From: Candidatus Binatia bacterium
GTDB taxonomy: Bacteria > Desulfobacterota > Binatia > UBA9968 > CAXXLF01
NCBI GenBank assembly: GCA_963664015.2
Contig: CAXXLF010000002.1
Span: 1,824,001 to 1,888,000 of the forward strand
Direction of reading: 5' to 3'
Length of the DNA stretch: 64,000 nt
Part shown: positions 15,106 through 52,155 of the stretch, piece by piece
Position numbering within the stretch: position 1 is the first letter of the stretch
Layout of the letters: each line of letters begins with the position of its first letter
Notes under the pieces: model-generated
Database searches by the model: none
What the model saw: only the letters and a program-made list of their open reading frames with translations
Told to the model about the DNA's origin: nothing
Program-made: the position numbers and the translations under genes

Positions 15106-16160
15106 CAATGGACCGAATATCTGAGAGGGTTTCGCGACACGATGGGGCATTTTCAGATTGGCCATCCGGCATTTCTAATGGGCCAGTATTCGGTAACAGG
15201 ATGGTGGTATTATTTCCCTATGGCGGTTCTACTAAAAATTCTCATCCCTTTGTTAGTCTCTGAATTGATGGCTCTTTTCTTTTATAGCTTTGCCAAAAAA
15301 ACAAGCGGGGTATTTTCTCTTACTGCCTGTGGGTGTGATAATGGCGTCCGCTCTGCTGAGGCACATTAATGTAGGGATCAAGCACGTTCTACCCATATTG
15401 TCCATTGCTAATTGTGATGGCCAGCAGTATTACAACAATCCGAAATAGTCGCCCACGTGTCTTTGCTTCCAGTTTCGCTGGGTTGGGACTCTGGTGCGTT
15501 GTCTCAACCGTCTCTATCTTCCCAAGCTATCTGGCTTATTTTAACGAGTTTATTGGGCCGGAAAAGGGGTATCGGTATCTCGTGGATTTCAACCTGGATG
15601 GGGGGCAGGACCTCAAGAGGCTCAAGCAATTTATAGATGAAAAAGAGCTGGATCAGATCTATCTGCACTACTTTGGCACCGCCGAGCCCTGTTACTATGG
15701 AATTCACTCGATTGACTTACCTGGCTCGTTCAACCATTGTGGACGGTCCAATGATAAACTCGCGAGATTCCTCGCCATCAGCGCGACCCATCTTCAATCG
15801 GTCTATCTCCCCAATAAGGCATCCTACGATTGGATATTGAAGCAGGAACCCGTCACGCGGATCGGTTACTCGATTTTTGTCTACGACATCAAAGAAAATG
15901 TCCATAACAACTTTGGGATTCTCTACCTAAAAGAGGGTCAGACTAAACGGGCCCTGGAAGAGTTTAAGCGGGTCCTCGAACTCCTGCCAGGGGAGGCGAC
16001 AGCATATGTCAACGTTGGCTTTGCCCATGCCCGCCTGGCGGCCTTTTAGGAGGCGGAGCAAGCCTATGAGAGGGCATTGCCACTGGACCCACAAAACAAG
16101 ATTGCACAGGCCGGGCTAGAAGGGGTCAAGCGCCTAAGAAAATCCACCCAGGCGCTCTGA
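15106..16160 (+). pseudogene. C-terminal part of a GT-C (ArnT/PMT-like) glycosyltransferase with TPR tail, frameshifted
   Basis: GHPAFLMGQYS..GWWYYFP...K, YLAYFNE..G...YLVD.NLD.GQDL, then TPR continuing through TAG 16047 (EAEQAYERAL.LDP). Confidence 0.7.
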
Positions 16161-16193
16161 ACCGGGGAAACTCTGATCCCCTACTATTGCTAA

Positions 16194-17253
16194 GTGAAAT
16201 CTATCTTTAAACCTGTACTCGGGATATTCGTTGCCTCATCGCTCCTCTATTGTTTTTCTTCTCCTGGAGTGGACAATGATCTTTGGGGCCATCTCTTTTT
16301 TGGGCGTGAGATCGTTTAAAGAGGGACCCTCCCCTTAATCAACCTTTATTCGCACACGACTCCCGATCATCCTTGGGTGAACCACGAATGGTTAGCGGCG
16401 GTTATCTTTCATGGAGTTTATTCTACCCTAGGGTCCCCCGGTCTGATTCTGCTCAAGGTTCTCATCGGCAGTAGCATTGTTTGCATGCTGAATGGAATCA
16501 TCGTAAAGCGGGACCCCTTCAATTTGGGGCCGAGCCTTCACGCTGGTATGGGTCATGGCGCTTCTCTCTCCCGGGTTTCACATCCGCCCGCAAATTTTCA
16601 CTTATTTCCTATTCACCGTTTTTCTCTACGTTTTTCATCGGTGCAAAGAAAAAGGACCCGGTGCGCGTGTTTTGTGGATCTCCGGTGCCCTTTGTCTTCT
16701 CGCTTTGGTGGTCAATCCCTATGGATTGGAGCTGTTGCGCTTCTTATGGCGAGACCTTCGTATTGACCGTCCTATCACCGAGTGGGATCCAGTCCCGCGC
16801 TGGAACCTATCGTTCCTCGAAATCCAGATAGCCTTTCTGGTTGTTCTTTCCTCGATCAGAAAAATCTCCTGGATCAAATGGGATTTTGTCTTAACCCTGT
16901 TCACCGTATTTCTGGCCTTTCGTCATCAGCGTCGCACGCCGCTTTTTGCCCTTGCAGCGGCGCCTTTCCTGGCTCAGGGGTTGGAGACGATCATTCGAGC
17001 CGTCGGGACGGTTCTCGCAAAAGGGAAACAAACCAAACTGTCACTTCCAGCACAGGGGGTCTTCGTTGCGGGTATCCTGGTTGTCGCCACTGTGCAGCTG
17101 GTGTGGTTGGGCAGGATTCACTGGACGAATCGTTTTCAGCTCACCGTAAGTCCGTCCGAATACCCGTTACAGGCGGCCGACTTTTTAAAGCGCAACCGAA
17201 TTATCGGAAATATTGTCGTTCCCCAGGTCCCATCGATCTACTTCTCGGGGTAG
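16194..17253 (+). pseudogene. Fragmented GT-C-like membrane protein
   Basis: DNDLWGHLFFGREIV*...WVNHEWL, then after a frameshift IRPQIFT, VNPYG, ITEW.P, RHQR.TPLF; truncated at the 3' end. 5' boundary approximate. Confidence 0.65.
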
Positions 17254-17314
17254 GCGAGGCGGTGGGGCGAGCTGGAGCATCAGGGACCAGGCCTGAGGCA
17301 GTTGATTCTTCAGT

Positions 17315-17457
17315 TCCACCAGTTCTATTTGGCCCCTGGTTTTTCTTCCTTGATAAAAGTGTGGACCAATCGGGGGATGGCGCCGCAGCTAGAGCATCTG
17401 GGGGATTCGGGTTTGGTCCCGTCCGGATTCCTCATGAACCGCAAATAAAAGGGCTTT
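17315..17457. repeat. 143-bp direct repeat, copy 2
   Basis: Matches 11105-11247. Confidence 0.95.
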
Positions 17458-17528
17458 TCGGTTCCCACATACTCATCGTAGTAAAAGGCAAGTTTGCCGC
17501 ACTCACTGCACTGAAGGTATCGCGCCAT
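17325..17528 (-). CDS. Small zinc-ribbon protein (67 aa)
   Basis: RBS GGAG; MARYLQCSECGK...RCSSCG with two CxxC motifs; starts just after the dioxygenase stop. Confidence 0.75.
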   Translation of the reverse strand: MARYLQCSECGKLAFYYDEYVGTEKPFYLRFMRNPDGTKPESPRCSSCGAIPRLVHTFIKEEKPGAK

Positions 17529-17541
17529 CTGATTGGTTCTC

Positions 17542-18651
17542 CTAGTGTTTGATTTCCAATGTACTCGTGACGGTTTGGTGCCCACCGTTTTCCCTGTAGG
17601 GCTCCTCACGGTACAAGCCCAGGGCTTTCATTACGGGGATATCCTGGATGGAAAAAAGGATGGTATCTGCGCCACTATCGTTGGCGTGTTCATGCCAGGC
17701 CCAGGGAGGAATAACGAAAAAGTCGCCCGGCTCCCAGTTTAGGCGCTGGCCGTTGATAATAGTGCTACCGCTCCCTTCAAATACGTGATAGACGGTGCTG
17801 TTTACCTGCCGATGGGTCTTGGTGTGGACTCCGGCTCGAATGAGTTGAATCGTACAGCCCATAGTCGGAAAGACAGGTCCCCCGGTGTTAGGGTTCAAAT
17901 ACTCGAAACAGATATCGTCGTAAGGGCTTGCAGGGCCCTCCCCAATCCGCTTCAAGGCTTCATAGGTAGGCTCCCATTTGTAGTTGAGCAGGGGAGAGTC
18001 GTCTGTTTCCTGGTTCTCCCAGGTGGGGCGTAGATAAGGTCCGCAAAATTTCGTTTCCGAGTCATTGACTGTTGTAACGGGAAACCGGTGCTCTGGATAG
18101 GGCTCGAAGAAAACAGCGTCCAGATCTCCGACCAGAGGAAGGTCCAGACCGTCCATCCAAATGGTTGGCTGGTCCGACTCGCATCCGTGATCATGCCACG
18201 TCCAGTTGGGGGTCAAAACCAGGTCCCCCCGGCTCATCATACATTTATCACCGTTGACGTTGGTATAAGTGCGCTCCCCTTCGATGATAAACCGAATCGC
18301 CGAGGGTGTATGGCGGTGACATGGGGCAATCTCTCCGGGTTGTACGATCTGGACGGCGGCCCATAGAGTCTGGGTCGCAGCGCATTTACCCCCAAGACCT
18401 GGATTGACCAGCGCCAGAACCCTCCTCTCCCCACCGCGCTCGATGGGAACCAGGTCTGCAGCACGATAAGCCAAATCGCGCAACTCGGATCCTTTCCAAA
18501 GATGGGGTTGAACCTTGGTTTGGGGTTCGGGAGGGAGGAGGCGGCCGGTGACATTCCACAGCGCCACCAGGTGCTTTCTGTCGAGCTCCTTGTAAAACTC
18601 CTCACTCTTTTTATCAACGTGTGTGTTGCCAGGTACTTTTCGCTTAGCCAT
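17542..18651 (-). CDS. Gentisate 1,2-dioxygenase-family bicupin
   Basis: ERRVLALVNPGL, HRHTPSAIRF, LTPNWTWHDH, WMDGLDLP, PPWAWHEH; start ATG 18651 with RBS GGAGG. Confidence 0.9.
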   Translation of the reverse strand: MAKRKVPGNTHVDKKSEEFYKELDRKHLVALWNVTGRLLPPEPQTKVQPHLWKGSELRDLAYRAADLVPIERGGERRVLALVNPGLGGKCAATQTLWAAVQIVQPGEIAPCHRHTPSAIRFIIEGERTYTNVNGDKCMMSRGDLVLTPNWTWHDHGCESDQPTIWMDGLDLPLVGDLDAVFFEPYPEHRFPVTTVNDSETKFCGPYLRPTWENQETDDSPLLNYKWEPTYEALKRIGEGPASPYDDICFEYLNPNTGGPVFPTMGCTIQLIRAGVHTKTHRQVNSTVYHVFEGSGSTIINGQRLNWEPGDFFVIPPWAWHEHANDSGADTILFSIQDIPVMKALGLYREEPYRENGGHQTVTSTLEIKH

Positions 18652-31939: not shown

Positions 31940-33205
31940 ATGGCAGATGGGTTGGACAGCGAACAGTACTGGAATCAAGCAAAAACCGAAGATGAGCTGC
32001 GCCGGGTCTTCGATCTCTGCAACGGGTGCCGGCGTTGTTACAATCTCTGCCCGTCCTTTAACGATCTGTTCGAACGCCTGGACAGTGAGTCGGTCGATGG
32101 CGAGGCAGACAAGCTTGAGAGCCCAGACCTTAGAAGCGTTACCGACTTCTGCTATCAGTGCAAGCTGTGCTATAACCACTGCCCTTATACTCCTCCCCAC
32201 CGATGGGAGATCGATTTCCCGCGCCTCATGTTGCGTTCAAAGGCCGGACAGGTCAAGCGAGACGGGCAATCGTTCCAGGACGCCTTTCTCGGTCAGGTTG
32301 ACCGCGTTGGGCGCCTCGGCAGCTTCTTTGCTCCCATAGCCAATTGGGCCCTGAAGAACCCTGTCAACCGTTGGCTCATGGAAAAACTTCTGGGGCTGCA
32401 CCGCAAGAGGTTGCTCCCTGCCTACGCCAGCGAGACCTTTCGCCGCTGGTTTGACCGGCGAAAGGTCACAACCGGATCAGGTGATGGGAAGAAGGTTGCC
32501 CTATTTTATACTTGCAGCGTGAATTACAATGAGCCAGAAACCGGAAAGGCCTGCGTCCAGGTGTTGGAAAGGAATCGATGTCAGGTAGCCTGTCCCCAGC
32601 AACAGTGCTGCGGCATGCCTTTTCTCGACGGCGGGGATGTGGAGGCAGCCAAGACCAGTGCCCGCGCCAACGTCGCTTCCCTCCACGCCCTGGTTCGGGA
32701 GGGCTACGACATTGTTGTTCCCGGCCCGACCTGTAGTTTTACGATCAAGCAAGAATATCCTCTGCTTTTTCCCGGGGAAGAATCCCGAAAGGTCGCAGAG
32801 AGGACCTTCGATGTCTGCGAGTACCTCATGAGTCTACACGGTGAGGGAAAGCTCGACACCGGATTCACCAAGGGTATGGGACAACTGGCCTACCAGATGC
32901 CTTGTCATCTCCGGGCGCAAAACATGGGTTATAAATCTCGTGACCTGATGGAGCTGATCCCCGACACCCAAGTCCACTTGATGGAGAAGTGTGCGGCCAT
33001 TGATGGCACCTGGGGTCTGAAACAACAGTACTTTGATCTCTCATTGAAGGTTGCCAAGTCGCTGTTGGACGAGATTCAGGAGAAGCGGCCCGATCTCACG
33101 GTTTCCGACTGTCCCCTGGCGGGACTCCAGATCGAGCAGGGAACGGGGAGAAAGTCGCTGCACCCGGTCCGGGTCCTGGCCAAGGCCTATGGCCTTGATG
33201 GGTGA
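31940..33205 (+). CDS. Fe-S oxidoreductase (GlpC/HdrD-like, CCG domains)
   Basis: CNGCRRCYNLCP, CYQCKLCYNHCPY, CCGMP, PCHLRAQ, SDCPLA. Confidence 0.9.
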   Translation: MADGLDSEQYWNQAKTEDELRRVFDLCNGCRRCYNLCPSFNDLFERLDSESVDGEADKLESPDLRSVTDFCYQCKLCYNHCPYTPPHRWEIDFPRLMLRSKAGQVKRDGQSFQDAFLGQVDRVGRLGSFFAPIANWALKNPVNRWLMEKLLGLHRKRLLPAYASETFRRWFDRRKVTTGSGDGKKVALFYTCSVNYNEPETGKACVQVLERNRCQVACPQQQCCGMPFLDGGDVEAAKTSARANVASLHALVREGYDIVVPGPTCSFTIKQEYPLLFPGEESRKVAERTFDVCEYLMSLHGEGKLDTGFTKGMGQLAYQMPCHLRAQNMGYKSRDLMELIPDTQVHLMEKCAAIDGTWGLKQQYFDLSLKVAKSLLDEIQEKRPDLTVSDCPLAGLQIEQGTGRKSLHPVRVLAKAYGLDG

Positions 33206-33211
33206 GCAAGT

Positions 33212-33793
33212 ATGAAAAAGATTGGACTGGATGACATTCAGGGTCTGGCCGCTTACGAGAATATCCGTGAGGAGTTCCGCCGGGAGATCATTGAGCTCAA
33301 GAAAAAGCGACGGGTTGCGGTGGGAGCACAGGTTACACTGGTTTTCGAAAATCGTAAGACCGTCATTTTTCAGATCCAGGAGATGCTCCGAGCGGAACGG
33401 ATTAAGGACCTAGACAAGATTCGAGAAGAAGTTGAGGTATATAACGGTCTCATCCCCGATGGGGGTGAACTCAGCGCAACCCTACTGCTGGAAATCGAAG
33501 ACCAAACCCACATTAGAGAGGAGCTGCTAAAATTCCTGGGTCTCGATGAGGCTGTCTTTATCCAGGTGGGTGTTGGACCGCCTATTCGTGCGCGCTTTGA
33601 GGAGGGGCACAGCAAGGAGGACAAGATCAGTGCGGTGCAGTATGTGAGGTTTTCTCTCGATCCCGGCCTCATTCAGGCCATGGTCGAGAAGAAAGACCGC
33701 ACACGATTGTTTATTGATCATCCCCATTACAAAGCGGAGACGACTCTGACTCCCGAATCCCAGCAATCCTTGGCAGAAGACCTCATGGTCTAG
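33212..33793 (+). CDS. DUF3501 family protein
   Basis: KKKRRV..G...L.FEN..T...QIQEM.R.E, SAVQYVRF; typical partner of short rubrerythrins. Confidence 0.88.
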   Translation: MKKIGLDDIQGLAAYENIREEFRREIIELKKKRRVAVGAQVTLVFENRKTVIFQIQEMLRAERIKDLDKIREEVEVYNGLIPDGGELSATLLLEIEDQTHIREELLKFLGLDEAVFIQVGVGPPIRARFEEGHSKEDKISAVQYVRFSLDPGLIQAMVEKKDRTRLFIDHPHYKAETTLTPESQQSLAEDLMV

Positions 33794-33801
33794 AGGAATC
33801 C

Positions 33802-34185
33802 ATGGCCAAGAATATCCGCAGGCATACCAAGCAGCTCGATTTAATTTGGAACGAAATCTCCCACGATACCTCGCATCCGACGGCAGACCAAATATACGAG
33901 AGGGTAAAGAAAAAAATCCCCAATATTAGCCTGGGAACGGTCTATCGCAATCTCCAGAAACTGGAGGCCGAGGGACAGCTCCAGGTCCTGACCCTCGATC
34001 GGACTCAGCATTTCGATCCCCTCGTGGATCGGCACCACCATTTCATCTGCAAGAGCTGCTGGCGGGTCTACGATGTCTTTGCTGATGGCGAGCAGGAGGC
34101 CCGGCCATCCTGTCCATCCCCCAAAGGGTTCACCGTGACCTCCCGTCAGTCGTCTTGGTATGGCACGTGTCAATCGTGCTCGTGA
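33802..34185 (+). CDS. Fur/PerR-family transcriptional repressor
   Basis: HPTADQIY, ISLGTVYRNL, HHHFICKSC, CQSC. Confidence 0.92.
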   Translation: MAKNIRRHTKQLDLIWNEISHDTSHPTADQIYERVKKKIPNISLGTVYRNLQKLEAEGQLQVLTLDRTQHFDPLVDRHHHFICKSCWRVYDVFADGEQEARPSCPSPKGFTVTSRQSSWYGTCQSCS

Positions 34186-37132: not shown

Positions 37133-40100
37133 TTACGCTTGTTGCGTGGCCTTAGGGCTCCGGCACATCCGTGCGCGGAGGGTACCCAAAGGACCAATCT
37201 CCTCGGGTAAGCCGTTTTTATAGGCGATGGCCATACCGGAAGTCGGTGAAACCCGCGGGTTGGGAGTCAGGATACCAACAAGGTTTAACGGGTCGGTGCA
37301 CGAGATCACCACTCCCTCGTGGTCGGGGGCGGCTCGGCGCATACTTCTCAGACCTTCGACGGCTTCGGGCAAGGCGTACTGCTCCCCCACAAAGCCGCTT
37401 ACGAATCGGCCACCGCGAATTTCACCGCGCGCCTCAAGCGGGCGGTAAACCCGAAGCAGGATCCACCATGGTGGCACCGTGGTCTCCCGTACCAACAGGT
37501 CGCGAAACACCAGTCCGTAGCGATGAAGCAACTGTAGGGCTATGGCCTCGTGGATCCGCTCGGGCTCAAGGGACGGTTTGGAAGGATTACCCTTCCTCCA
37601 AAGGGACCAGCGGCCCGTAGGCATGAGCCGTGGCGGCAGCGTACGTTTCAAAGAGCCCCTCAGTCGATGCCTCTTGGTTTTCCGTTTTGACTCGGGTAAG
37701 AGCAGAGTCCGAAGCCCGGCAACACCGTCCCCGCTAACATATCCACGGGCGACGAGTTCCCACAGGGCCTCTTCCGCGGGCGCCGTCTCCGCCGCTTTGG
37801 TCCCATTCGATGCCACTCCCGGTTTTAATCTTCCCCACGCCAGGGCGCCTGCAAGACAGAGACTCTCCAGATCTGCGGGGTCGTATTGGGCGATCCGTGC
37901 CGGTAGCACCGGTTCCTCCCAGGCCGGGGTCGGGAGCTCGAGCCCTTGAAGCTGCTTGATGACTTGCGACACCTTTTCACGACCGTGGAGCTGCGTATTT
38001 GGCTCTACATGTTGCCAACGGAGCAAGAAGCGGAGGAAGTCCGCTGCGGTGACCGGTTCAATCTTACGCCGTAGTTGGCCAGGGTAAGGCGGTGGCTGCG
38101 TGCGAGGAGTCGCCGGTCACACCACTCCACTTCGGTATCCGGAAGACCACCGGGAGTGAAGTGTCCTTGCAGGACATTGCCGGAGGCTTCCAGGGCAAAG
38201 AGGGCCTCTTTAGCTATTTGGGTGGGGAGTCCGATGCGCCTGGCAAGGGTGGTTGCCGTTACCGGGCCGACCACCTCCATCCATTCTTGTACGATCAATC
38301 CGATGGCGTGCTCCGCCGGAGAGTTCTCGTCCCTATGACGAATCCCTGATGGTAAACCAGTCGGGGCCTCTATTTCCAGATCAGGGAAGACGCTACGAAC
38401 CCGATCCAGGGGCTCCGTGGCAGCGTAGCCGGAGCGCTGGGCGGACCCGTCTCCAGGGTTCCACCGGACGAGAACGGTTCGGCCCGTTGCCATGAGTTCT
38501 TCCGACCATACGATCCAGTGCCGGGCTTCTTCCAAGGGCACGATTTCCGTACCTAAGAGAAAATCATGCAGCTCATCGGCGTCGCGTATATCTGGCCACG
38601 CCTCCGAGCGCACCTGCTCGATGGCTGCACTGCTGAGTAAACCGATACCGCGGGCCAGATCGGGATCGGTCCTTCGAAGGGCCACCGCTCGCGCGCGGCG
38701 TTCCTCGAAAGGTGCCTCATCTAGAAAGGCCTACGGGTTGGGATTGAGAATCTCGTGGGCCATGGGGGAAGGTGAGGGTGTGTCCACTGCCACGGTTGCT
38801 AGCTGCCTTTGCTCGATTCGTGTGAGGATCTTGTATAGACCGTCCAGATCCATAGCCTCATGAAGGCAGTTGCCAACCGTTTCATTCACCAGAGGGTGGT
38901 CGGGAAGCTCAATCGGGCCGACACGGTTATCCTGACACATGACCTGGGCCGGAAAGACCGAGGCCAGAATGTCTTCAGCGCCCATGCGCTGGATCGCCAT
39001 GGGGACCTTTTTACCACCGCAGAAACGCTGGATGGCCAATGCCCGTGTAGCATTCCACCGCCATCGAGTGGTAAAGATCGGCGCGGCCAGTAAGGCCTGA
39101 GTCAGATCCTTCTCTGCCGTCGTCGGCAGAACATAGGAAAAGATACTCTCCATTGGATAAGGAGTGATGCTTTCCCAGCGAAATAACGATACCGTCATCT
39201 GTGGCTGCGGCCTGCAGTTCAAAATTAAAGGCGACGTAAAAGCGTTTGCGCAGTGCCAGGCCCCAGGCGCGGTTGATGTGTCCACCGAAGGGCGTGTGCA
39301 GGACGAGTTGCATGCCGCCGGATTCGTCAAAAAACCACTCGGCAACAATGCCTTCGCCTGTAGGAACGCACCCGAGCACGGCTAGAATCGCTCGGATATA
39401 GGCAGCGATCTGCTCCGCTCCCGGGTGACATACCCCCGTCTCGTTCATCAGCCAGTTTACGGCAGCGACTGTGTCATGACTCAGTTGATCCACTTCATGT
39501 CGTAGATCGGAGATCGCTTGGGATAGCTCGCGGGTACGGCCAGGCGCCTCACCGAGCCAGAAGGGGATAGTGGGAGGAGCACCTTGGGCGTCCTCGACCC
39601 AAACCTTTCCCGAAGCGACCCGATGGATACGCCATGACTGATTGCCCAGAAGAAAAATATCCTCGGACAAACTTTCAATAGCGAAGTCCTCATTGACCTT
39701 GCCAACGAAGGTTTCCTGGGGGGCCTCGATGACATCGTAGTCGGCCGTATCCGGAATAGCACCACCACCGGTGATAGCCGTGAGGCGAGCTCCTCGACGC
39801 GCACGCAACCTGCCATGTACCTGGTCGCGGTGCAGGTAAGCGCTCCTTCGTCCCGTGCGGGCGGCAACTCCCTCAGAGAGAATGGTGAGGATCTCCTCGA
39901 ATTCCCTCCGGCTCAGGTGCCGGTAGGGATAGGCTCGGCGAACCATGGACCACAGCTCCTTCTCGCCGATACCCGAGGTGAGGCCTTCTTCTTCCATCGA
40001 GGGGGAGACTCCACTGTGGTTGTTGGAGCGGCATCAGGCTGGCTACGGTGGCGACCATCTGCTGAGCCAGGATATCCAGTGGCTTTTGCGGGATCTCGAG

Positions 40101-41308
40101 ACGGTCGAGCTCGCCCATCCGAACGGCGCGAATGGCCGCAGCCGATTGAAGCAGCTCGTCGCGGGTCAGTGGATAGAGAATCCCCTTGGAAACCGCTCCG
40201 AGCCAGTGGCCCGATCGCCCCACCCATTGGAGCAGGCTTTCCAACGACCGCGGTGCCCCCAGATGACACACCAGGTCCACATGACCGATGTCGATGCCGA
40301 GTTCGAGTGAAGCCGTTGCTACGACTACAGGGACCTGGGCGTTCTTGAGCTTTTGCTCGGCTTCGAGGCGTATCTTGCGGGAGAGGCTTCCGTGGTGGGC
40401 CCGAACCTTGTCTTCTCCCAGGCGCGCGCTCAATTGATGCGAGACACGTTCGACCAAACGGCGCGTATTGACGAAGACCAACGTGGTTCGCTGGGCGTTG
40501 ATCTGACCGACAATTCGATCATAGACCTCCGCCCAGAGCTCGTGGCTGGCGATGGGTCCGAGTGCTTGTTCCGGCAGGTATATAGTCAGATCGAGATCGC
40601 GCTTGTGACCGACATCCACGATAGTACACTGGGGCGCTCCATCATTTTTGATGCGATCGTTGCCGACCAGTAGCCGTGCCACCTCTTCTATGGGCTTCTG
40701 GGTCGCGCTCAGACCAATACGCTGCAGGCGACGGCCCGTGAGGGCGTCGAGTCGCTCCATGGAAAGGCTGAGATGGGCCCCGCGCTTGTCACCGGCGACC
40801 GCATGAATCTCATCGATGATAATCGTCTCGGCAGCCTTGAGGATCTGACGGCTGTGGTGGGCGGTGAGGAGGATATACAGGGATTCGGGTGTCGTAATGA
40901 GGATGTGGGGGGGGGGCGCAGCATCAACTGGCGCTTCCGATTGGGAGTATCTCCGGACCTCACCGCCACTCGGATATCGGGGTGGAGTTCCCCCTGATGG
41001 CCCATCAAGCTCAAAATTCCTGACAGGGGTTCCTGGAGGTTTTTTTGAATATCGTTTTCCAACGCCTTGAGGGGGGAAACATAGACAACGCTGGTCTTGT
41101 CCTCGAGGCGCCCTTCAACGGCTCGCCGTATGAGCCGGTCGATGGACCAGAAAAAAGCCGCAAGCGTTTTGCCTGATCCGGTGGGCGCTGCGATTAGGGT
41201 GTCATTACCCTGAGCGATAGATTCCAAGCCAGCTTCTTGAGCTGCGGTAGCCTTGCCAAAGCGCTCAGCGAACCACTGCCAGACGAGGGGGTGAAACAGA
41301 TGATTCAT
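37133..41308 (-). pseudogene. lhr: Lhr-family DEAD/DEAH helicase broken into at least six pieces
   Basis: [74 protein letters not shown] spread across frames; several frameshifts and TAG at 38731. Confidence 0.9.
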
Positions 41309-41426
41309 GAAACTTCCTTGCCCGAGGGATTCCAAGAGTGTAAATTCTTTAGTCCCTGTAACGCAACAGGCAGATGTAATCTAACGGTCCTATTCGGGCC
41401 CATTCAATGATTGAAAGACGACGTCC

Positions 41427-43698: not shown

Positions 43699-44403
43699 AT
43701 GCCTATTTATCGATTGATTGATGAGATCGTCTTTCCCCCGCCTGAGGATGCTCAACTGGACGGACTGCTGGCCGTAGGGGGAGACCTGAGTGCCAAGCGG
43801 CTCCTCATGGCTTACCAGTTAGGTATCTTTCCGTGGTATTCGGAAGGACAGCCCATTCTGTGGTGGTCGCCGGATCCGCGTTTGGTCCTTGACCCCAAGG
43901 ACTTTCGACTTTCCAAAGCACTGCGCCAGACACTTACGAAGGGTCCATTCCAGGTTACCTTCGATCAGTCGTTTGATGAGGTGATCGGGGCATGTAGCCA
44001 GGTCCCTCGAAAGGGGCAGCAGGGGACGTGGATCACGCAAGAAATGCAAGAGGGATACAAGGGGCTCCATAAACTGGGGTACGCCCACTCTGTGGAGAGT
44101 TGGCGCGACGGGGAATTGGTAGGCGGCCTTTATGGAGTTTCCCTGGGACGGTGTTTTTTCGGCGAATCGATGTTTTTTCTCGAAACCGATGCATCAAAAG
44201 TTGCCTTCGCAACTCTAGTAGAGCGACTCAAAGACTGGGGCTTTCACCTGGTTGATGCCCAGGTGACGACGCGCCACCTGATAAGCCTGGGGGCCAAGGA
44301 GATACCCCGCCCTGAATTTCTGAACCGGCTTGAGGAAGCCATGCGTTTCCCGACCCTCAAGGGCTCTTGGAGCGAGAGCAATGGCCTATTCATGGAACAA
44401 TAA
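43699..44403 (+). CDS. aat: Leucyl/phenylalanyl-tRNA--protein transferase
   Basis: GLLAVGGDL, GIFPWY, WWSPDPR, GTWI, AHSVE, FFGESMF, DASKVA. Confidence 0.97.
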   Translation: MPIYRLIDEIVFPPPEDAQLDGLLAVGGDLSAKRLLMAYQLGIFPWYSEGQPILWWSPDPRLVLDPKDFRLSKALRQTLTKGPFQVTFDQSFDEVIGACSQVPRKGQQGTWITQEMQEGYKGLHKLGYAHSVESWRDGELVGGLYGVSLGRCFFGESMFFLETDASKVAFATLVERLKDWGFHLVDAQVTTRHLISLGAKEIPRPEFLNRLEEAMRFPTLKGSWSESNGLFMEQ

Positions 44404-44475
44404 TCAGGCCCCATTGGCGTAGGGCCCACAGCTCTCGGTGCACTTCCGGGATGAATTCTGATCGGGGTTAGTGAG

Positions 44476-45735
44476 TTAAGCTGTTGGACAGCGGCCGGTG
44501 GTGAGGTGAGCCTGGAAATCATCCGGGAAGAGCTTGAAGGCACTTTCGATAGGCGGGCCCGGCATATTGATCAGATTACAGAACCCCTTCCCCTTATTGA
44601 AAGCAATAACCTTACTCAATTGATCCAAGAGGGCCTCTTGCCCTCCGCCTTGCTGGACCTTTTTTAGGATGGTGACCAGCATGTTGGTCTCCATCCGGCA
44701 GGCCGGACATTGATCGCAGGACTCACGAGAGAAGAACTCGGCGATTTTGAGGGTTTCTTCAACGATGCACTGGCCGTCGGTCAGGAAGCGGACGACGCCA
44801 CAACCAATAGAAGAACCAGCCTCGCGTACACTCTGGTGATCCAAGGGTAGGTCGAGCTTTTCGGGGAGGAGAAAGGCCGACGATGGGCCTCCAGGCTGAA
44901 TTGCCTTGAGGGATTTTTGGCCCTTAATGCCCCCACCGCATTCTTCCAGAAGGGTACGAAGCGGCACGCCGAAGGGAAGCTCATATATTCCCGGACGCTC
45001 TACATCTTCATTGAGTGAGAATATCATGGTTCCCGGGCTGTCCGCCGTACCAAAGCCACGATACCACTGGGCCCCTTTGGTCACAATTTGCGGTAGATTT
45101 GCCAGGGTTTCCACATTGTTGACGGCCGTGGGCTTGCCAGAAAGCCCAGCGGTAGCTGGAAAAGGAGGTTTCTCCCTCGGTTTGGGTTCTTTCCCCTCCA
45201 GGACCTCCAGCGCAGCAGTGTCCTCTCCCGCCACGTAGTTAGGTGGTGCGGGTTGGTGCAGGATTTCTAGATTAAATTTACTGCCTAGGACTTTCTCGCC
45301 CCAGTAGTCGGCCTTCTTGGCCTCGGCCATGGCTCCCAGCATGCTTTCGGTTGCGGCCTTATAATTTTGGTTTATGTAGAGATAGGCCTTGGGTGCCTGA
45401 ACCGCATAGGCAGCAAGGATAACTCCTTCGAGGACCAAGTGAGGGGCGTTCTCCATGAGGAGCCGGTCTTTTTTACTACCCGGTTCGTCCTCGCCACCGT
45501 TTAAGACCACGTAATGAGGCTGCTCTGTGCACTCGGCCGTGATGGCCATCTTCTTTCCCGTGGGAAATCCCGCCCCTCCGTGGCCGCGCAGGCCGGAATC
45601 GCTAACCTCTTTGAGAACGGCCTCGGGAGAGCCTTTAAGAGCCTTCTCCAGAGCTCCGTAGCCCCCATGGGCTAAGTACTCTTTCAGACCCTGTTTGCTC
45701 GCCACGACGCCACTAGGAAAGATGATCCCATCCAT
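44476..45735 (-). CDS. Stand-alone NuoF/HoxF-like FMN/[4Fe-4S] NAD(P)H dehydrogenase subunit
   Basis: SGLRGHGGAGFPTG, NGGEDEPGS.KDR, YVAGEDTA, NNVETLAN, SLBB domain, ESCDQCPACR...C. Confidence 0.9.
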   Translation of the reverse strand: MDGIIFPSGVVASKQGLKEYLAHGGYGALEKALKGSPEAVLKEVSDSGLRGHGGAGFPTGKKMAITAECTEQPHYVVLNGGEDEPGSKKDRLLMENAPHLVLEGVILAAYAVQAPKAYLYINQNYKAATESMLGAMAEAKKADYWGEKVLGSKFNLEILHQPAPPNYVAGEDTAALEVLEGKEPKPREKPPFPATAGLSGKPTAVNNVETLANLPQIVTKGAQWYRGFGTADSPGTMIFSLNEDVERPGIYELPFGVPLRTLLEECGGGIKGQKSLKAIQPGGPSSAFLLPEKLDLPLDHQSVREAGSSIGCGVVRFLTDGQCIVEETLKIAEFFSRESCDQCPACRMETNMLVTILKKVQQGGGQEALLDQLSKVIAFNKGKGFCNLINMPGPPIESAFKLFPDDFQAHLTTGRCPTA

Positions 45736-45743
45736 AAGGCCCC

Positions 45744-46067
45744 CTAAAAGACTCCGGTATCGAGGAGCTGATAGATGAGATCTTTGAGTGAGCTGTCGAT
45801 CTTATCAAGCCGTTTGACGTCAGGTCCTCCGGAAAGGTGCGCTACAATATCATTGACATCTTCCTTCTTGACGCCAGCGTACCAGCTTTTCTGTGGGTAG
45901 AGAACGATGTTGGGCCCCTCCTGGCAGGCGCCAAAACACATGTATGACTTGACCTCCACATCCTTTAAATCCTTTTCACCCACCTGCTTCTCAAGTTCTT
46001 TCATAATCTCTTCAGACCCTCGACTTTTACAATCGATGTTCTGACAGACAAGACAGATACACTTCAC
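45744..46067 (-). CDS. Thioredoxin-like [2Fe-2S] ferredoxin
   Basis: CQNIDC...CFGAC..GPNIVLYP...WY; GTG start with RBS AAGGAG. Confidence 0.9.
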   Translation of the reverse strand: MKCICLVCQNIDCKSRGSEEIMKELEKQVGEKDLKDVEVKSYMCFGACQEGPNIVLYPQKSWYAGVKKEDVNDIVAHLSGGPDVKRLDKIDSSLKDLIYQLLDTGVF

Positions 46068-46113
46068 TTAACTCTCCTTCCCATTGATGACAAGACTTGC
46101 GAGTGAACTGGGA

Positions 46114-47214
46114 TCAGTTCATCTGTAGGACCCAGTCTTTTTTCTTGAAGATTTCACTCAGGATACGTTCATCCTCTTCTGTGGGAAGCACCTGGGTCAG
46201 ATGCCTCTTATGCTCCTTTTGTGTGAGCAGTTGGCCATCGACGCTGTAAGGCTTCCCCGTGTGCTCTCCGATGGAACGGTTAAACTTTAAATCGGGACTG
46301 GTCAGTTTGATCTCCCCGTCGGGGATATTCTGATTGAGGGCCTCCACCAGACTATGGGCCTCGATACAATAGTGCTCTAAGGCCAGCTCGTTGAGTCTGG
46401 TCTTGTCTGCCTCTTCCTTGGCCTCGTGCTCATTGTAGCGGCCTTTGAGACCCCAGACATAAGCCCACTGGGCGGAAGAAGATTGAGTGGTTCCAAAGAG
46501 GTCATAGGCCGTGGATAACCACTTGTTAAAGTATTTCTGTACGATGGATACGGGAATCTTTCGCGCCTTGACGACACGAGTGAGTCCCGTGTTGCCGGTG
46601 AACATATGGAAAGACTCCTCCTTGAGCATCGCGGTTACGCTCTGGGCCAAGGGGGCAAATGCCGAATGACTCAGCATGGTGAGCTGGTATTTCCCGTCTC
46701 TGTCGACGAATTCGGTGTAGGTAAAAAAATCGAGCCAGTTGGTCACCGGCTGATTGAAAGAGCCCAAAAGGCGATTGCCCTGCCCCGCTCGACGCTGCAG
46801 AAGCTTCTCCGCTTCCAATTTTCCAGAATAGCCAAAGTAATTCACCAGAAGATAGCACATCTGCCAGCCATGGCGCATCTCTTCGCTGTTGACGCGGATG
46901 AGCGCCTGACGATCATAATCCGTAGGTGCGTTGTCCAGAAGGTTTTTCTGTTGTTCCACAGAGGCAAATTCCGTATCCCCCTGATATACGATCAGGTTCA
47001 AAAGCGCGTCACGGATGGTTTGATTGGGGATCTGGGTCACTCTTTGCCATTTCGGTTGCCCCTTGAAATCGCCGAATTCGATCTCGGGAGAATGGAGTTC
47101 CCCAAGTTTGGTCTCGAATTTATAGTCACCAAAAAGAAAAGCATCGTAGCCGATATCCTTATGCCATTCGTGGAAACAGTCGATCCAATCATCAAATGTC
47201 GTGATTTTTCCCAT
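46114..47214 (-). CDS. BoxB-like (PaaA/PaaC family) ferritin-like diiron aryl-CoA epoxidase subunit
   Basis: QGDTEFASVEQQ, APTDYD, EEMRHGWQM, DRDGKYQL, EESFHMFTG, DLFG; RBS GAGGAG. Confidence 0.88.
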   Translation of the reverse strand: MGKITTFDDWIDCFHEWHKDIGYDAFLFGDYKFETKLGELHSPEIEFGDFKGQPKWQRVTQIPNQTIRDALLNLIVYQGDTEFASVEQQKNLLDNAPTDYDRQALIRVNSEEMRHGWQMCYLLVNYFGYSGKLEAEKLLQRRAGQGNRLLGSFNQPVTNWLDFFTYTEFVDRDGKYQLTMLSHSAFAPLAQSVTAMLKEESFHMFTGNTGLTRVVKARKIPVSIVQKYFNKWLSTAYDLFGTTQSSSAQWAYVWGLKGRYNEHEAKEEADKTRLNELALEHYCIEAHSLVEALNQNIPDGEIKLTSPDLKFNRSIGEHTGKPYSVDGQLLTQKEHKRHLTQVLPTEEDERILSEIFKKKDWVLQMN

Positions 47215-47245
47215 TTTCTTCTCCTCTGGGGATCCCTTCAGTTAG

Positions 47246-47292
47246 TTCGAACGATCGTTAGAATTTATAGCTTGGAAGGGGCAATGTCAACG
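47246..47292 (-). promoter_or_regulatory. Promoter and palindromic TetR-type operator of the boxB-like operon
   Basis: Minus strand TTGACA-17 bp-TAAATT; palindrome TTCGAACGATCGTTAGAA (47246-47263) just downstream of the -10. Confidence 0.7.
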
Positions 47293-47505
47293 CTAGAGGT
47301 CCCCCTTTCAGGGTGCCTTTTTGTCGGACGCAACTTTAGGGATTTTCCCTTTGGAAGTCAAATACTTCGCTGGGACTAGGGGGGACTATATCCGATAACA
47401 ATAACACGGTAGTACTAGCGCTCATTCGGTTCTCGCTTTGGATTTCTCTATGTGACGGATCCATCGAGTGAGTTTTCAGGGGAATGAATTAGATAAAGAA
47501 AGGGC

Positions 47506-48984
47506 TCAAGGGCGATTGGACTTGCCCACGAACCCAGGGCCGAATCCGGCCGCTTGAGCGGCCCAAGCCCCTGCCACGCGCCCGCTGAATATGGAGGGGC
47601 CAAGCATGGTTCCTTCCAGTCCCGCGTGCCCGTTGATATGTCCTCCAGCCATCCCGGACACCTCTCCCGTGGCGTAAAGGCCCGAGATGGGCTCGAAGTG
47701 ACAGTCCAGCACATGACATCTGAGGTCGGACTTGATGCCGCCGAAGTTCTTTCGCGCCACGGGAAAGAGGTGAATGGCATAAAAAGGGGGCGTGCCGAAT
47801 TTTTTCGACTGCTTGAGGGGTTTGCCCCATTCGGGTTCTTGTTCCAGGCCGCTCTCGCATGCCTGGTTGTACCGCTCCATGGTGGAACAAAAGATGGGAA
47901 GGTCCACCTCCGTCTTCCGCCCCAACTCGGCAATGGATTCGGCCTTATGGATATGGCGCGAGTTATCCAGCAGCGCCTGGATCTTCTCGCGTACGGTCTT
48001 GTTGTCTGCTTGGCCAAAGAGATCGGAAACCGCCATTTCCATCGCCATGGTCCCATCCAGTATCGCCCTCGCGTGTGGCGGATCCTACGCCATGAGTGCC
48101 AGCGTGGCCGAAGCGCCTCTGGTGAGAGATTCATTGTGGAAGCGTCGTCCCTGTTGGTTCACCCAGACGAATCCGGGGGTACCCCGAAAGGCGATGCCCC
48201 GCTTCCCCGTGGGGTCGCGGTGATCCGGAGTGGGGAAAACATAAAACCAGATATGATCCATGTGGGTAAGATAAGCACCTACTTCACTGGCGAGTTTGTG
48301 ACCCGCCCCTGTGGCTCCTAGACCGGCTCCCGCCATAATTCTGTACCTCTTGAGATCTGGTCTTGCCTCCAAGATCATATCCAGGTTGGAGTTGAATCCT
48401 CCGGCGGCAATAACGACGGTTTTACTGCTAATCTCCAATGGGTCACCGCTCTTCGTATTCACCCCGCTCAGACCGCAGGCCCTGCCATCTCGTGTGAGAA
48501 TCCGGGTAACTTCGGTTGCGGTGTGGATTTCGTAAACCCCGCACGCCTTGACCGCTTCGATCAAGGCCGACGTAATCCCGAAGCCCCCCTCGGCAGGGCG
48601 ATGCCAGCGGGGAACCCGGTTGCCTTCGGGCTGGTTAAGGTCCTGCCAGTGGACCCCCAATTGTTCTGCCCACAGATAGAGTTCGTGCAACGAATGCTCG
48701 AGGTAAAACCTGGCCCACGGCTCATCGGCTGCACCTCCGCCCCACGCGACCCAGTCCTCAAAGGCCTGATCGGGGGTGTCATGTATCCCTTTGGATGACT
48801 GGAGTGGGGTCCCGGCCATACAGCAACCGCCTCCGGAGACAATGGACGCACCTCCCATGGTCTCCGCCCTTTCCACCATGGCAACCTTGGCACCGGTACC
48901 ACGGGCCTCGATGGCGGCCGCCAACCCGGCTCCTCCAGTACCGACAATGGCCACATCGGCTACAATTCGCTTCGGGTCAGCCAC
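47506..48984 (-). pseudogene. FAD-dependent oxidoreductase (fumarate reductase/3-ketosteroid dehydrogenase flavoprotein family) split by an in-frame TAG
   Basis: GTGGAGLAAA, GGAS..SGG, AAGGF, VNQQGRRF.NE; TAG at 48085; then GLYATGE..G, GRVAG. GTG start with RBS AAGGAGG. Confidence 0.85.
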
Positions 48985-49302
48985 GACGCTCCTCCTTGAC
49001 TCCAGTCCCACGTATAATAGTCCGACCACCCATATATCAAAAGACGTGAAATTGTGAAGTTTCGACGTTAGTTCCGATTATGGGTCTACTCTTCATTCGG
49101 CCAAGACCCCTGATTGACCCCCAAATGCCTCGGTGGTAAGTATCACGTGCTTTAACAACGGTTTCGAACAGCTAATCGGGGAACCCCAAGTCGACCACGA
49201 TCCAATCCGTATCTATGTAATCCGAGTGTTGGCTCAGTCTAATGCTAAGTTGGGGCGAATGGGAACTCATCAATCCTTTCATCTGTTCATAGGAGAGAGA
49301 AC

Positions 49303-52155
49303 ATGAACCCTTTACAGGCACTGAACGATTATGGGCAATCGGTCTGGTTGGATTTTATCCGGCGCAGCCTCCTGACCAGCGGCGAGCTCGCCCGTCTTGT
49401 CCAGCAGGACAGTCTCCGTGGCGTGACCTCGAATCCGGCGATCTTTGAGAAGGCGATTACGGGCAGCACCGATTACACAGAGATGCTCAAGGATCTGGCG
49501 TCGCAGCACGGCGACGCCAAGGCGTTGTACGAGCAGGTAGCCATTGGGGATATTCAGGACGCTGCGGATGTGATGCAATCGGTCTATATGGAGACCAAGC
49601 GGCGTGACGGATACGTCAGCCTGGAGGTATCCCCCCACTTGGCCCGTGATACCAAGGGCACTCTGGAAGAGGCCCAGCGGCTTTGGAAGGCCGTGGGACG
49701 TGACAATCTAATGATCAAGGTGCCGGCGACACGGGCAGGGATCCCTGCCATCGAGCAACTGATTAGCGATGGGATCAATGTCAATGTGACCCTTCTCTTC
49801 TCTCAAGCCATTTACGAGAAAGTCGCAAAGGCTTACCTTGCGGGACTTCAAAAGTTTGCGAGCCAGGGTGGTGATGTGAGCCGGGTCGCCAGTGTGGCGA
49901 GTTTCTTTATCAGCCGCATAGACACGGCTGTGGATATGCGGCTCGAGGCTAGCATCAAGACTGCCAAACGGGCCAGCGAGCGAGCCCTGCTGCAAAGCCT
50001 CATGGGCAAGGTCGCCATTGCCAATGCCAGGCTGACCTATCAGAGTTACCAGGAGCTTTTTCGTGGCGAAGGGTGGCAGGCCCTGGCAAAAACAGGGGCA
50101 CAAACCCAACGGGTCCTCTGGGCCAGTACGAGCGCTAAAAACCCGAGCTATCGTGATGTGGTCTATGTGGAGGAGCTGATCGGGCCTGATACCGTCAATA
50201 CGATTCCACCAGCAACCTATGATGCCTTCCGGGACCACGGCCGGGTTCGCATGAGCCTGACTGAAGGGTTGGAAGAGGCGCACGATACCATGGAAACCCT
50301 CGCCAAGGTCGGGATCTCGATGAAAGAAGTGACCGACAAACTGCTGCATAACGGGGTCCGGTTATTCGTTGAGCCCTTTGACAAGCTCCTGGCGGCAGTG
50401 GGAAAAACCTGTCAGAAATCTGTCACAGCAAAGATCAACCAGCAGAGCTATTCGATACCGGAGCCTCTGTTATCAGCAGTGAAAGCCTCGTTGGAAGAAT
50501 GGCGTGCGGATGGCAAGGTCCCTCGGTTGTGGGCCCGGGATGCCACTCTGTGGACGGGCACCGACGAGGCCAATTGGCTCAGCTGGTTGGGTATAACCGA
50601 AGAACAACTCGAGCGGGCGACGCATTTCACGGACATCGCCGCTGAGGTCAAGAAAGCAAAGTTCTCTCACGTCCTGCTCCTGGGCATGGGAGGATCGAGC
50701 CTTTGTCCCGAGGTGATGCAAAGGACCTTTGGCAAACAGGCTGGCCACCCGGAGTTTCATGTCCTGGATTCAACGGATCCAGCCCAGGTCAAGGCGTTCG
50801 AGGAAAAGATCAATGTGGCCCGTTCCCTCTTCATCGTGTCGAGCAAATCCGGTGGGACCTTGGAGCCTAACATATTCAAGCAGTATTTCTTTAAACGGGT
50901 TCAACAGGTTGTCGGTGCGCAAAAAGCGGGAAGCCGGTTTATTGCCATCACGGATCCCGGTTCCAAGATGCAACAGGTTGCCGAGAGCGATGGGTTCCGC
51001 CGTGTGCTCTTTGGGCTACCCAGCATCGGTGGAAGGTACTCGGCGCTATCGGACTTCGGCATGGTGCCTGCGGCGATCATGGGCATCGACGTTCCACGCT
51101 TCCTTGACCGTACCGACGAGATGGTGCAGGCCTGTTCCTCTTGTGTCCCGGTGGAAGAGAATCCCGGTGTAGTCCTGGGGACCCTATTGGGGGTTCTGGT
51201 CAATCACGGACGGGACAAGGTCACACTTATCACCTCGCCGGGGATATTCGATCTCGGCGCGTGGTTGGAACAGCTCCTGGCAGAGTCGACGGGGAAAGAA
51301 GGGAAAGGGCTCATTCCCGTCGACTTGGAGGAAGTGGGTCCCCTGGAAGCGTATGGCAATGACCGGATCTTTGTCTACATGAGATTGGAAACGGCCCCTG
51401 ACGCACACCAGGATAAAGCCGTCGACGCCCTCGAGCGCGCTGGCCAACCCGTAATTCGCATTGCCGTATTGGACATTTATGATATCGGCCAGGAAATTTT
51501 TCGCTGGGAAATCGCAACAGCGGTGGCGGGAGCTATCATCGGGATCAATCCTTTTAACCAACCGGATGTGGAGGCCAGCAAGGTTGCCACTTGGAAATTG
51601 ACGACCGAGTACGAAAAGAAGGGGACACTACCCCGGGAGACTCCGATTCTAAATCAAAAGGGTATCAAACTCTTCACCGACGAGAAGAACACCGCGGCAC
51701 TGAAGCAGGCGGTGGGACAGGATCAAACCCTGATCGGATATCTCAAAGCCCATCTCAGTCGCATTTCAACCGGAGATTACCTTGCCCTGCTAGCCTATAT
51801 CGAGTTCAACACGGTACACCAAGAGCAATTACAGGCAATGCGGCATGCTGTCAGGGATAAGAAACAGGTGGCGACATGCCTGGGCTTCGGCCCGCGTTTT
51901 TTACACTCGACCGGTCAGGCCTATAAGGGTGGGCCTAATTCAGGCGTCTTTATACAGATTACCTGCGATGACGCGGTGGATCTAAAGGTTCCCGGCCAGA
52001 AGTACACCTTCGGCATCGTTAAAGCCGCGCAGGCACGAGGTGACTTCGAGGTGCTGGCTGAGCGCGACCGTCGCGCGTTGCGTGTTCACCTTGGCAAAGA
52101 CGTTAACGCCGGTTTGGCCACGCTGGGTAAGGCCATAGAGCAGGCGTTGGCATAG
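49303..52155 (+). CDS. tal: Bifunctional transaldolase/phosphoglucose isomerase
   Basis: GQSVWLD, GVTSNPAIF, MIKVPAT, NVTLLFS, LWAST; PGI half GMGGSSL, SSKSGGT.E, GGRYS, QL.AESTGK, NPFNQPDVE. Confidence 0.96.
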   Translation: MNPLQALNDYGQSVWLDFIRRSLLTSGELARLVQQDSLRGVTSNPAIFEKAITGSTDYTEMLKDLASQHGDAKALYEQVAIGDIQDAADVMQSVYMETKRRDGYVSLEVSPHLARDTKGTLEEAQRLWKAVGRDNLMIKVPATRAGIPAIEQLISDGINVNVTLLFSQAIYEKVAKAYLAGLQKFASQGGDVSRVASVASFFISRIDTAVDMRLEASIKTAKRASERALLQSLMGKVAIANARLTYQSYQELFRGEGWQALAKTGAQTQRVLWASTSAKNPSYRDVVYVEELIGPDTVNTIPPATYDAFRDHGRVRMSLTEGLEEAHDTMETLAKVGISMKEVTDKLLHNGVRLFVEPFDKLLAAVGKTCQKSVTAKINQQSYSIPEPLLSAVKASLEEWRADGKVPRLWARDATLWTGTDEANWLSWLGITEEQLERATHFTDIAAEVKKAKFSHVLLLGMGGSSLCPEVMQRTFGKQAGHPEFHVLDSTDPAQVKAFEEKINVARSLFIVSSKSGGTLEPNIFKQYFFKRVQQVVGAQKAGSRFIAITDPGSKMQQVAESDGFRRVLFGLPSIGGRYSALSDFGMVPAAIMGIDVPRFLDRTDEMVQACSSCVPVEENPGVVLGTLLGVLVNHGRDKVTLITSPGIFDLGAWLEQLLAESTGKEGKGLIPVDLEEVGPLEAYGNDRIFVYMRLETAPDAHQDKAVDALERAGQPVIRIAVLDIYDIGQEIFRWEIATAVAGAIIGINPFNQPDVEASKVATWKLTTEYEKKGTLPRETPILNQKGIKLFTDEKNTAALKQAVGQDQTLIGYLKAHLSRISTGDYLALLAYIEFNTVHQEQLQAMRHAVRDKKQVATCLGFGPRFLHSTGQAYKGGPNSGVFIQITCDDAVDLKVPGQKYTFGIVKAAQARGDFEVLAERDRRALRVHLGKDVNAGLATLGKAIEQALA

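Follow-up and report, generated by a model that had tools for sequence, protein, structure and literature searches.

The closest described relative of the system reported here is the benzoyl-coenzyme A (CoA) epoxidase BoxAB of Azoarcus evansii, in which BoxB is monomeric and its reductase BoxA is an NADPH-specific protein with flavin adenine dinucleotide (FAD) and two [4Fe-4S] clusters (PMC4498308). The diiron center of A. evansii BoxB is held by E120, E150, H153, D211, E240, and H243, and the second-shell residues Q116, T119, S123, F193, F203, F206, and T210 position the benzoyl group (PMC5489048). A second comparable system is the phenylacetyl-CoA 1,2-epoxidase PaaABCE. Here we analyzed a window of 64,000 nucleotides from the genome of a Candidatus Binatia bacterium (assembly GCA_963664015.2, contig CAXXLF010000002.1, positions 1,824,001 to 1,888,000 of the forward strand), which carries three co-oriented, intact genes on its minus strand, encoding a short BoxB-like diiron protein (46114..47214; open reading frame [ORF] of 366 amino acids, ATG start), a thioredoxin-like [2Fe-2S] ferredoxin (45744..46067; 107 amino acids, GTG start preceded by GGAGA), and a NuoF-like flavin mononucleotide (FMN)/[4Fe-4S] protein (44476..45735; 419 amino acids, ATG start). 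We propose, with confidence that we put at about even, that this trio forms an aryl-CoA oxygenase of three components driven by NADH, with the NuoF-like flavoprotein and a ferredoxin derived from NuoE in place of BoxA. To our knowledge, no oxygenase is served by a NuoE/NuoF-type module, and the known reductases of diiron multicomponent oxygenases are of the ferredoxin-NADP-reductase type. The literature that was searched, in the parts of it that were accessible, held nothing on a short BoxB-like family or on an oxygenase served by a NuoF-type module.

The diiron protein is BoxB-like but is not a BoxB orthologue. It passes the PaaA_PaaC family model PF05138 (49.9 bits; cut-off, 28.5), reaches 243 bits on the BoxB equivalog model TIGR03225, which is half of the cut-off of 499.1 and compares with 672 and 908 bits for true BoxB representatives, and stays under the PaaA cut-off (TIGR02156; 47 versus 280 bits). 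Its closest solved relative is BoxB (3per; E value, 5.3e-53), followed by 4mud, with PaaA far behind, and the ESM Atlas gave just the BoxB-family label again. The AlphaFold2 model (predicted local distance difference test score, 92.7) superposed in Foldseek along its whole chain on benzoyl-CoA-bound BoxB (3pm5), with template modeling (TM) scores of 0.90-0.91 by query (TMq) and 0.70-0.71 by target (TMt), as compared with a TMq of 0.54-0.57 against PaaA. All six BoxB ligands align with E82, E112, H115, D171, E200, and H203 of the diiron protein, and these predicted iron ligands are invariant across 26 aligned sequences. Five of the seven BoxB second-shell residues are also identical (Q78, T81, S85, F153, and F163). 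In a tree of 42 rows, built by a quick search and containing several long branches, true BoxB forms a separate long branch, while the trio-linked diiron proteins form one clade of 13 rows (Shimodaira-Hasegawa-like approximate likelihood ratio test, 98) inside the short family. An earlier note on this DNA, made from its letters alone, had called the protein BoxB-type; the scans and the structural match upheld this, and the tree set the protein apart from true BoxB. The motifs that it quoted are all present in the translations of the diiron protein (GDTEFASVEQ, 79-88; EEMRH, 111-115; DRDGKYQL, 171-178; EESFH, 199-203) and of the NuoF-like protein. It was also right that canonical BoxB is roughly 100 amino acids longer, the TIGR03225 model having 471 positions, two representatives 465 and 475 amino acids, and the Protein Data Bank (PDB) chain 481 amino acids. 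The word "minimal" that it applied to the oxygenase is apt in that three loops and the C-terminal tail of true BoxB are missing in the alignment, but all domains are kept.

The short family is large, with 5,044 homologues at an E value of ≤0.001, the best 120 of which are all 366 or 368 amino acids long and 75-100% identical, and genomes frequently hold two of its paralogues. None of five matches to longer proteins was fused to a reductase, and three of the five were BoxC-BoxB-type long proteins of the canonical family. The other two, P0271 (a crotonase with a short BoxB-like part, 57% identity) and P0272 (an aldehyde dehydrogenase with such a part, 55%), are represented by one member each; they give a weak hint and may be read-through gene calls. 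ORFs of 443-652 amino acids over the diiron genes of two high-GC loci (L076 and L077) and "NuoF" ORFs of 503-514 amino acids at two others (L022 and L029, by frame arithmetic) were rejected as fusions, being upstream extensions of the open frame. The genome of the window also holds a second PaaA_PaaC-family protein, of 238 amino acids, elsewhere (locus L081, 1468-2184 on the plus strand, equal to G000:C2:1009305-1010021), which scores 92.3 bits on the PaaA model, below the cut-off; the ORF after it looks like an electron-transfer flavoprotein beta subunit.

The ferredoxin passes PF01257 (37.4 bits; cut-off, 24.8), stays under the NuoE cut-off (TIGR01958; 33.7 versus 142.4 bits), and aligns with only the C-terminal, thioredoxin-like half of NuoE (positions 72-147 of 148). 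Its cysteines C8, C13, C44, and C48, in the NuoE-type spacing C-x4-C-x30-C-x3-C, are invariant in 17 aligned sequences, as is the C-terminal tail IYQLLD.G. The NuoF-like protein matches PF01512 (131.2 bits), PF10531 (SLBB; 27.9 bits), and PF10589 (61.4 bits), lies under the NuoF cut-off (TIGR01959; 414 versus 558.65 bits), and is encoded outside any nuo operon. Its best PDB match, end to end, is the NuoF of complex I (8e9g; E value, 9.4e-97), and NuoF-like subunits of hydrogenases and NfnB match it about equally well. None of the cluster cysteines C340, C343, C346, and C386 varies among the 10 trio members aligned. The earlier note had read the changes in three of its motifs as suggesting specialization; NGGEDEPG (79-86) and YVAGEDTA (167-174) are indeed invariant in all 10 trio-type proteins, but RGHGG (50-54) is not, being RGRGG in 8 of them. 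Canonical NuoE (178.3 bits; cut-off, 142.4) and NuoF (629.5 bits; cut-off, 558.65) genes sit side by side about 152 kb away, so that the ferredoxin and NuoF-like genes of the trio are extra, diverged copies. The earlier idea of a repurposed NuoE-NuoF module is thereby partly supported, with the amendments that the ferredoxin corresponds to only half of NuoE and that the pair is not strictly dedicated to the diiron protein. In a Pfam scan of 48 further ORFs of the window there was no nuo, hox, or fdh family match, in agreement with what had been noted before. A prediction of the complex of the NuoF-like protein, the ferredoxin, and the diiron protein scored 0.00, which speaks neither for nor against binding.

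The sequence points to a single predicted transcription unit for the three genes. The gaps between them measure 46 bp (diiron/ferredoxin) and 8 bp (ferredoxin/NuoF-like), bearing out the earlier description of tightly spaced, co-oriented, intact genes, and a GAGGAG ribosome-binding site precedes the diiron ATG. A promoter-like site of sigma-70-like type, TTGACA-17-TAAATT (47262..47290, minus strand; 10 of 12 consensus matches), lies 48 bp upstream of that ATG, and a terminator-like hairpin with a T-run (44405..44428, minus strand; 9 pairs, 5 of them G-C) lies 48 bp past the NuoF-like stop. Both are mere consensus matches, as the region holds 4 promoter-like sites against 2.8 ± 1.6 in shuffles and 9 terminator-like sites against 5.2 ± 2.2, without clear enrichment. 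It is the 8-bp gap together with these common signals that argues for one transcript.

The arrangement is conserved. Of 80 genome loci fetched, 30 encode a diiron protein at least 71% identical to ours and 50 come from sister clades. The order diiron-ferredoxin-NuoF was found in 28 of the 30 close loci, the remaining two being cut by contig ends; the titles of these 30 loci read Binatia (13), "Deltaproteobacteria" (8), Syntrophobacter-type (2), Thermodesulfobacteriota (2), Verrucomicrobiota (3), Limnocylindrales (1), and Eisenbacteria (1). Of 61 genomes compared within the order, 46 carry the trio-type diiron clade, with the NuoF-like gene found in 43 of these (the three misses are fragmented assemblies), and the NuoF-like gene occurs in 55 overall. 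Purifying selection on each gene of the trio is strong, with dN/dS values of 0.03-0.06 against two genomes of the same family, dS being saturated. The interval 44300-49100 is identical in contigs of three sequencing runs from two studies, one of these contigs possibly being the source of the window. A contig of run X5, 98.6% identical, differs by 9 nucleotides and 5 amino acids in the diiron gene, too few for an inference on selection.

In the mechanism that we propose, the NuoF-like flavoprotein would take a hydride from NAD(P)H on its FMN and pass single electrons via its [4Fe-4S] cluster to the thioredoxin-like [2Fe-2S] ferredoxin, which would then reduce the diiron center of the short BoxB-like protein. 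The diiron protein would activate O2 and attack an aryl-CoA thioester by oxygenating its ring, epoxidation being the most likely reaction and benzoyl-CoA or a close analogue the likeliest substrate. The ferredoxin-NuoF pair would in this way do for the diiron protein what BoxA does for BoxB. We infer the route of the electrons and the preference for NADH or NADPH as well as the substrate and the product.

The main reason for placing the short family on benzoyl-CoA or a close analogue is the gene set of sister-clade clusters. In clusters labeled Acidobacteriota (such as L068, 1572-12623, and L060, 2850-9571), the diiron gene is accompanied by a TetR regulator, two crotonases, an aldehyde dehydrogenase, CoA-transferase subunits, a 3-hydroxyacyl-CoA dehydrogenase, and a three-subunit molybdoenzyme. 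The crotonase directly upstream of the diiron gene is nearest to PaaG (227.8 bits) and to the alternative oxepin-CoA hydrolase, and the large subunit of the molybdoenzyme just passes the cut-off for the alpha subunit of 4-hydroxybenzoyl-CoA reductase (1,011.3 versus 994.55 bits), with the two small subunits below theirs. As judged from their genes, these activities are those expected around an aryl-CoA epoxide. The same clusters also hold a Mug/UDG-like gene of 170 amino acids and a small ArsC/Spx-like gene. Where the sister paralogue occurs in Binatia-type genomes, it adjoins a GlpC-like Fe-S protein, to which a CCG protein of the window (31940-33205) is 48% identical; the latter, of 421 amino acids and with CCG and 4Fe-4S domains, stands in a row with a DUF3501 protein and a Fur-family regulator (31940-34185, plus strand).

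The canonical partners BoxA, BoxC, and PaaE were searched for elsewhere in the genome of the window, and none was found at its cut-off, the best scores being 35.4 versus 459.2 bits for BoxA, 66.8 versus 712.3 bits for BoxC, and 34.6 versus 420.8 bits for PaaE. Neither BoxC (E value, ≤1e-60) nor BoxA (E value, ≤1e-40) was found in any of the 61 genomes of the order, in a search in which no positive-control genome matched; the same BoxC model gave 675 bits on a fetched protein. Since BoxC is absent, whatever follows the oxygenation would be left to enzymes from other parts of the genome. No PaaB-, PaaC-, or PaaD-type gene adjoins the trio, and a genome-wide search for these three was not made. 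Among possible contributors, a gene of the benzoate-CoA ligase family (588.7 bits; cut-off, 375.25) lies 14 kb before the window beside an aldehyde dehydrogenase, and a crotonase-aldehyde dehydrogenase pair includes a crotonase 58-60% identical to that of the Acidobacteriota clusters. The ligase gene stands in a row with the aldehyde dehydrogenase and a class II aldolase (L111, 9945-13705 on the plus strand, equal to G000:C2:1807944-1811704), and a double hot-dog dehydratase-like gene lies near this row on the other strand.

Several observations weigh against an aryl-CoA oxygenase driven by this redox pair. The diiron protein reaches only half of the BoxB equivalog cut-off, and two of the seven second-shell residues differ from BoxB (F206 to Y166 and T210 to V170), alike in all three short clades. 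Neither in the window nor in its relatives is the trio linked to a catabolic gene, the genes on either side being housekeeping genes or PtsP, a radical S-adenosylmethionine (SAM) gene, and aat. Elsewhere in the genome of the window, a cluster of PaaF-, PaaG-, PaaH-, and 3-oxoadipyl-CoA-thiolase-like genes stays entirely below the equivalog cut-offs, and its PaaH-like gene is split into two ORFs; together with the ligase and the crotonase pair, these genes make a pathway possible without showing one. In 46 of the 50 sister-clade loci, there is no ferredoxin or NuoF-like gene near the diiron gene, which means that the short family can use other donors. Conversely, the NuoF-like gene occurs without a trio-type diiron gene in 12 genomes of a single genus; in three of them (L113, L114, and L115; G020, G022, and G040), the ferredoxin and NuoF-like genes are intact and adjoin aat, and in the three examined the pair without the diiron gene evolves at an omega of 0.05-0.16 (dS, 0.35-0.65). 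Finally, the taxon labels are those of metagenome bins, and a "Verrucomicrobiia" locus (L010) shares Binatia flanks, which leaves the spread across phyla insecure.

The main rival explanation keeps the same redox chain and changes its target, which would be a substituted or non-aromatic acyl-CoA, or its chemistry, which would be hydroxylation or desaturation in place of ring epoxidation; we consider it unlikely, though it deserves to be taken seriously. The missed BoxB cut-off, the position of the diiron clade apart from true BoxB, and the missing loops and C-terminal tail all suit such a shift, as do three changed residues that line or adjoin the pocket, P121 to F83 being the third beside the two second-shell exchanges. 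Frequent paired paralogues of the short family suggest different substrates or donors, and BoxC, which would take the epoxide onward, was found neither in the genome of the window nor in 60 relatives. Against this, the protein shares with BoxB five of the seven residues named as contacting the benzoyl group, and each of the three short clades shows the same changes; one of these clades adjoins a 4-hydroxybenzoyl-CoA-reductase-like enzyme and a PaaG-like crotonase, a setting that fits benzoyl-CoA epoxide chemistry.

Less likely, and in our view improbable, is that the ferredoxin and NuoF-like protein form a general NADH:ferredoxin module whose place beside the diiron gene is merely inherited order, with the diiron protein served by another donor. 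That the 12 genomes mentioned above keep the pair without an adjacent diiron gene shows that it has some use beyond that protein and is not strictly dedicated to it, and in the three examined the pair is intact and under selection. Both genes are missing at most sister-clade loci, the functionally unrelated aat is an equally constant neighbor, and the 28 loci are not independent, most related loci coming from one order. However, a single transcript is suggested by the 8-bp gap and by the promoter- and terminator-like signals common to the three genes, and the trio holds together despite differing upstream genes, which are PtsP in many relatives, a broken flavoprotein here, and transporters elsewhere. 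At 4 of the 50 sister-clade loci (L033, L034, L051, and L080), the diiron gene has a homologous ferredoxin in its vicinity, with surroundings that are otherwise different; these include the Acidobacteriota-labeled L051 and L080, where the ferredoxin stands beside a diiron gene of another clade within different flanks. In addition, all 12 genomes without a trio-type diiron gene carry the sister paralogue, a possible acceptor that the ferredoxin-NuoF pair may serve, and one of them (L114, 5810-5972) retains a remnant of the 3′ end of the diiron gene.

As ferritin-like diiron proteins are able to reduce O2 or peroxide, the trio could in principle work without an organic substrate, as an NADH oxidase or peroxidase whose diiron site detoxifies O2 or H2O2, and its lack of flanking catabolic genes would suit this role. 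We regard it as very improbable, as most of the residues with which BoxB holds the benzoyl group are retained, the modeled structure appears to retain the whole BoxB fold with its C-terminal part, and the sister clades sit in CoA-thioester clusters. That the diiron protein is simply a short BoxB orthologue in an ordinary Box pathway, as the Joint Genome Institute (JGI) name "benzoyl-CoA 2,3-dioxygenase component B" on many family members and the best match to BoxB by sequence and by fold might suggest, is hardly credible, being already contradicted by the halved equivalog score and the separate clade, and with BoxA and BoxC found neither in the genome itself nor in 60 relatives.

The genes around the trio in the window are housekeeping genes according to the scan of the 48 ORFs, and a functional tie to aat, PtsP, the radical-SAM gene, or a glyoxalase gene was dropped, as these vary among loci or lie on the opposite strand. 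Directly upstream of the trio lies a gene for an FAD-binding flavoprotein resembling flavocytochrome c and 3-ketosteroid dehydrogenase (47506-49029, minus strand; about 507 amino acids), which is broken by a single in-frame TAG at 48085-48087; this TAG is also present in the identical contigs of the three runs. A large Lhr-type helicase gene (37133-41335, minus strand) is in five ORF pieces in different frames, which share out the Pfam domains DEAD, Helicase_C, DEAD_assoc, and WH_Lhr. At 14797-17552 (plus strand), a glutamine-amidotransferase ORF of 190 amino acids is followed by three ORFs without Pfam matches, a region that may be a decayed asparagine-synthase-type gene, and a single ORF of 950 amino acids at 49303-52155 (plus strand) fuses transaldolase and phosphoglucose-isomerase domains. 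Further genes that look broken occur elsewhere in the genome (G000:C2:194808-196465, C2:482933-483947, C2:784684-786101, and L112, 9595-11293). They comprise both CoA-transferase subunits (two BLAST pieces each), a ferredoxin-NADP-reductase (FNR)/2Fe-2S reductase-like gene (three pieces), an acyl-CoA ligase interrupted by internal stops, and the PaaH-like dehydrogenase in its two ORFs. A neighborhood "full of pseudogenes", as the earlier note put it, is thus an overstatement, since most other ORFs of the window appear whole, although the flavoprotein and the helicase are broken and the genome has many broken genes. That the trio is intact and under selection in such a genome suggests that it does something the organism needs.

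Trio-type genes are common in uncultured soil and marine bacteria, and the family is large and unstudied, its members being labeled BoxB or "phenylacetic acid catabolic protein" by annotation pipelines. With such labels, the short family may be misread when aerobic benzoate breakdown in soils is estimated from genomes. More broadly, and more tentatively than for the trio itself, the combination of a NuoF-like protein with the thioredoxin-like half of NuoE might represent an unrecognized reductase class for bacterial diiron oxygenases, the short BoxB family might constitute an aerobic route of aryl-CoA ring attack without BoxA and BoxC that is usual in Binatia-type bacteria and Acidobacteriota of soil and sea, and the module may feed more than one diiron paralogue. 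A NuoF-type donor, if true, would be a new wiring of NADH to O2 activation and another reuse of complex-I parts.

Compared with the known systems, the redox pair resembles the NuoE-NuoF entry of complex I in that the NuoF-like protein retains all four cluster cysteines as well as the glycine-rich motifs for FMN and NADH, whereas both trio proteins fall below the respective cut-offs, the ferredoxin is without the N-terminal half of NuoE, and the NuoF-like clade has the invariant motifs NGGEDEPG and YVAGEDTA of its own. Unlike complex I, NAD-linked hydrogenases, and formate dehydrogenases, the trio has no NuoG-, hydrogenase-, or formate-dehydrogenase-type partner near it in the scan of the window. 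On the oxygenase side, the SSO1313-type [quoted passage not shown] protein of Sulfolobus (4mud) belongs to the same superfamily (E value, 2e-20; TMt, 0.82), but it has 235 amino acids and a function that is not known, and the genome of the window has a separate member of 238 amino acids, described above. With the phenylacetyl-CoA epoxidase PaaABCE, the diiron protein shares the PF05138 family and, putatively, action of a diiron enzyme on a CoA thioester, and the crotonases adjoining sister-clade diiron genes are nearest PaaG; it differs in its weak match to PaaA, and PaaE is not above its cut-off. BoxAB (3per and 3pm5) is unlike the trio in that the proposed reductase of the latter would consist of a NuoF-like FMN/[4Fe-4S] protein and a [2Fe-2S] ferredoxin, and in that the diiron protein of the trio is about 100 amino acids shorter, lies below the equivalog cut-off in a separate clade, and occurs where BoxA and BoxC were not found. 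BoxAB is nevertheless the system to which the trio is alike in the BoxB fold, in the six iron ligands, in five of the seven second-shell residues, and probably in having the diiron protein as a single oxygenase subunit, no PaaB/PaaC-type partner adjoining it.

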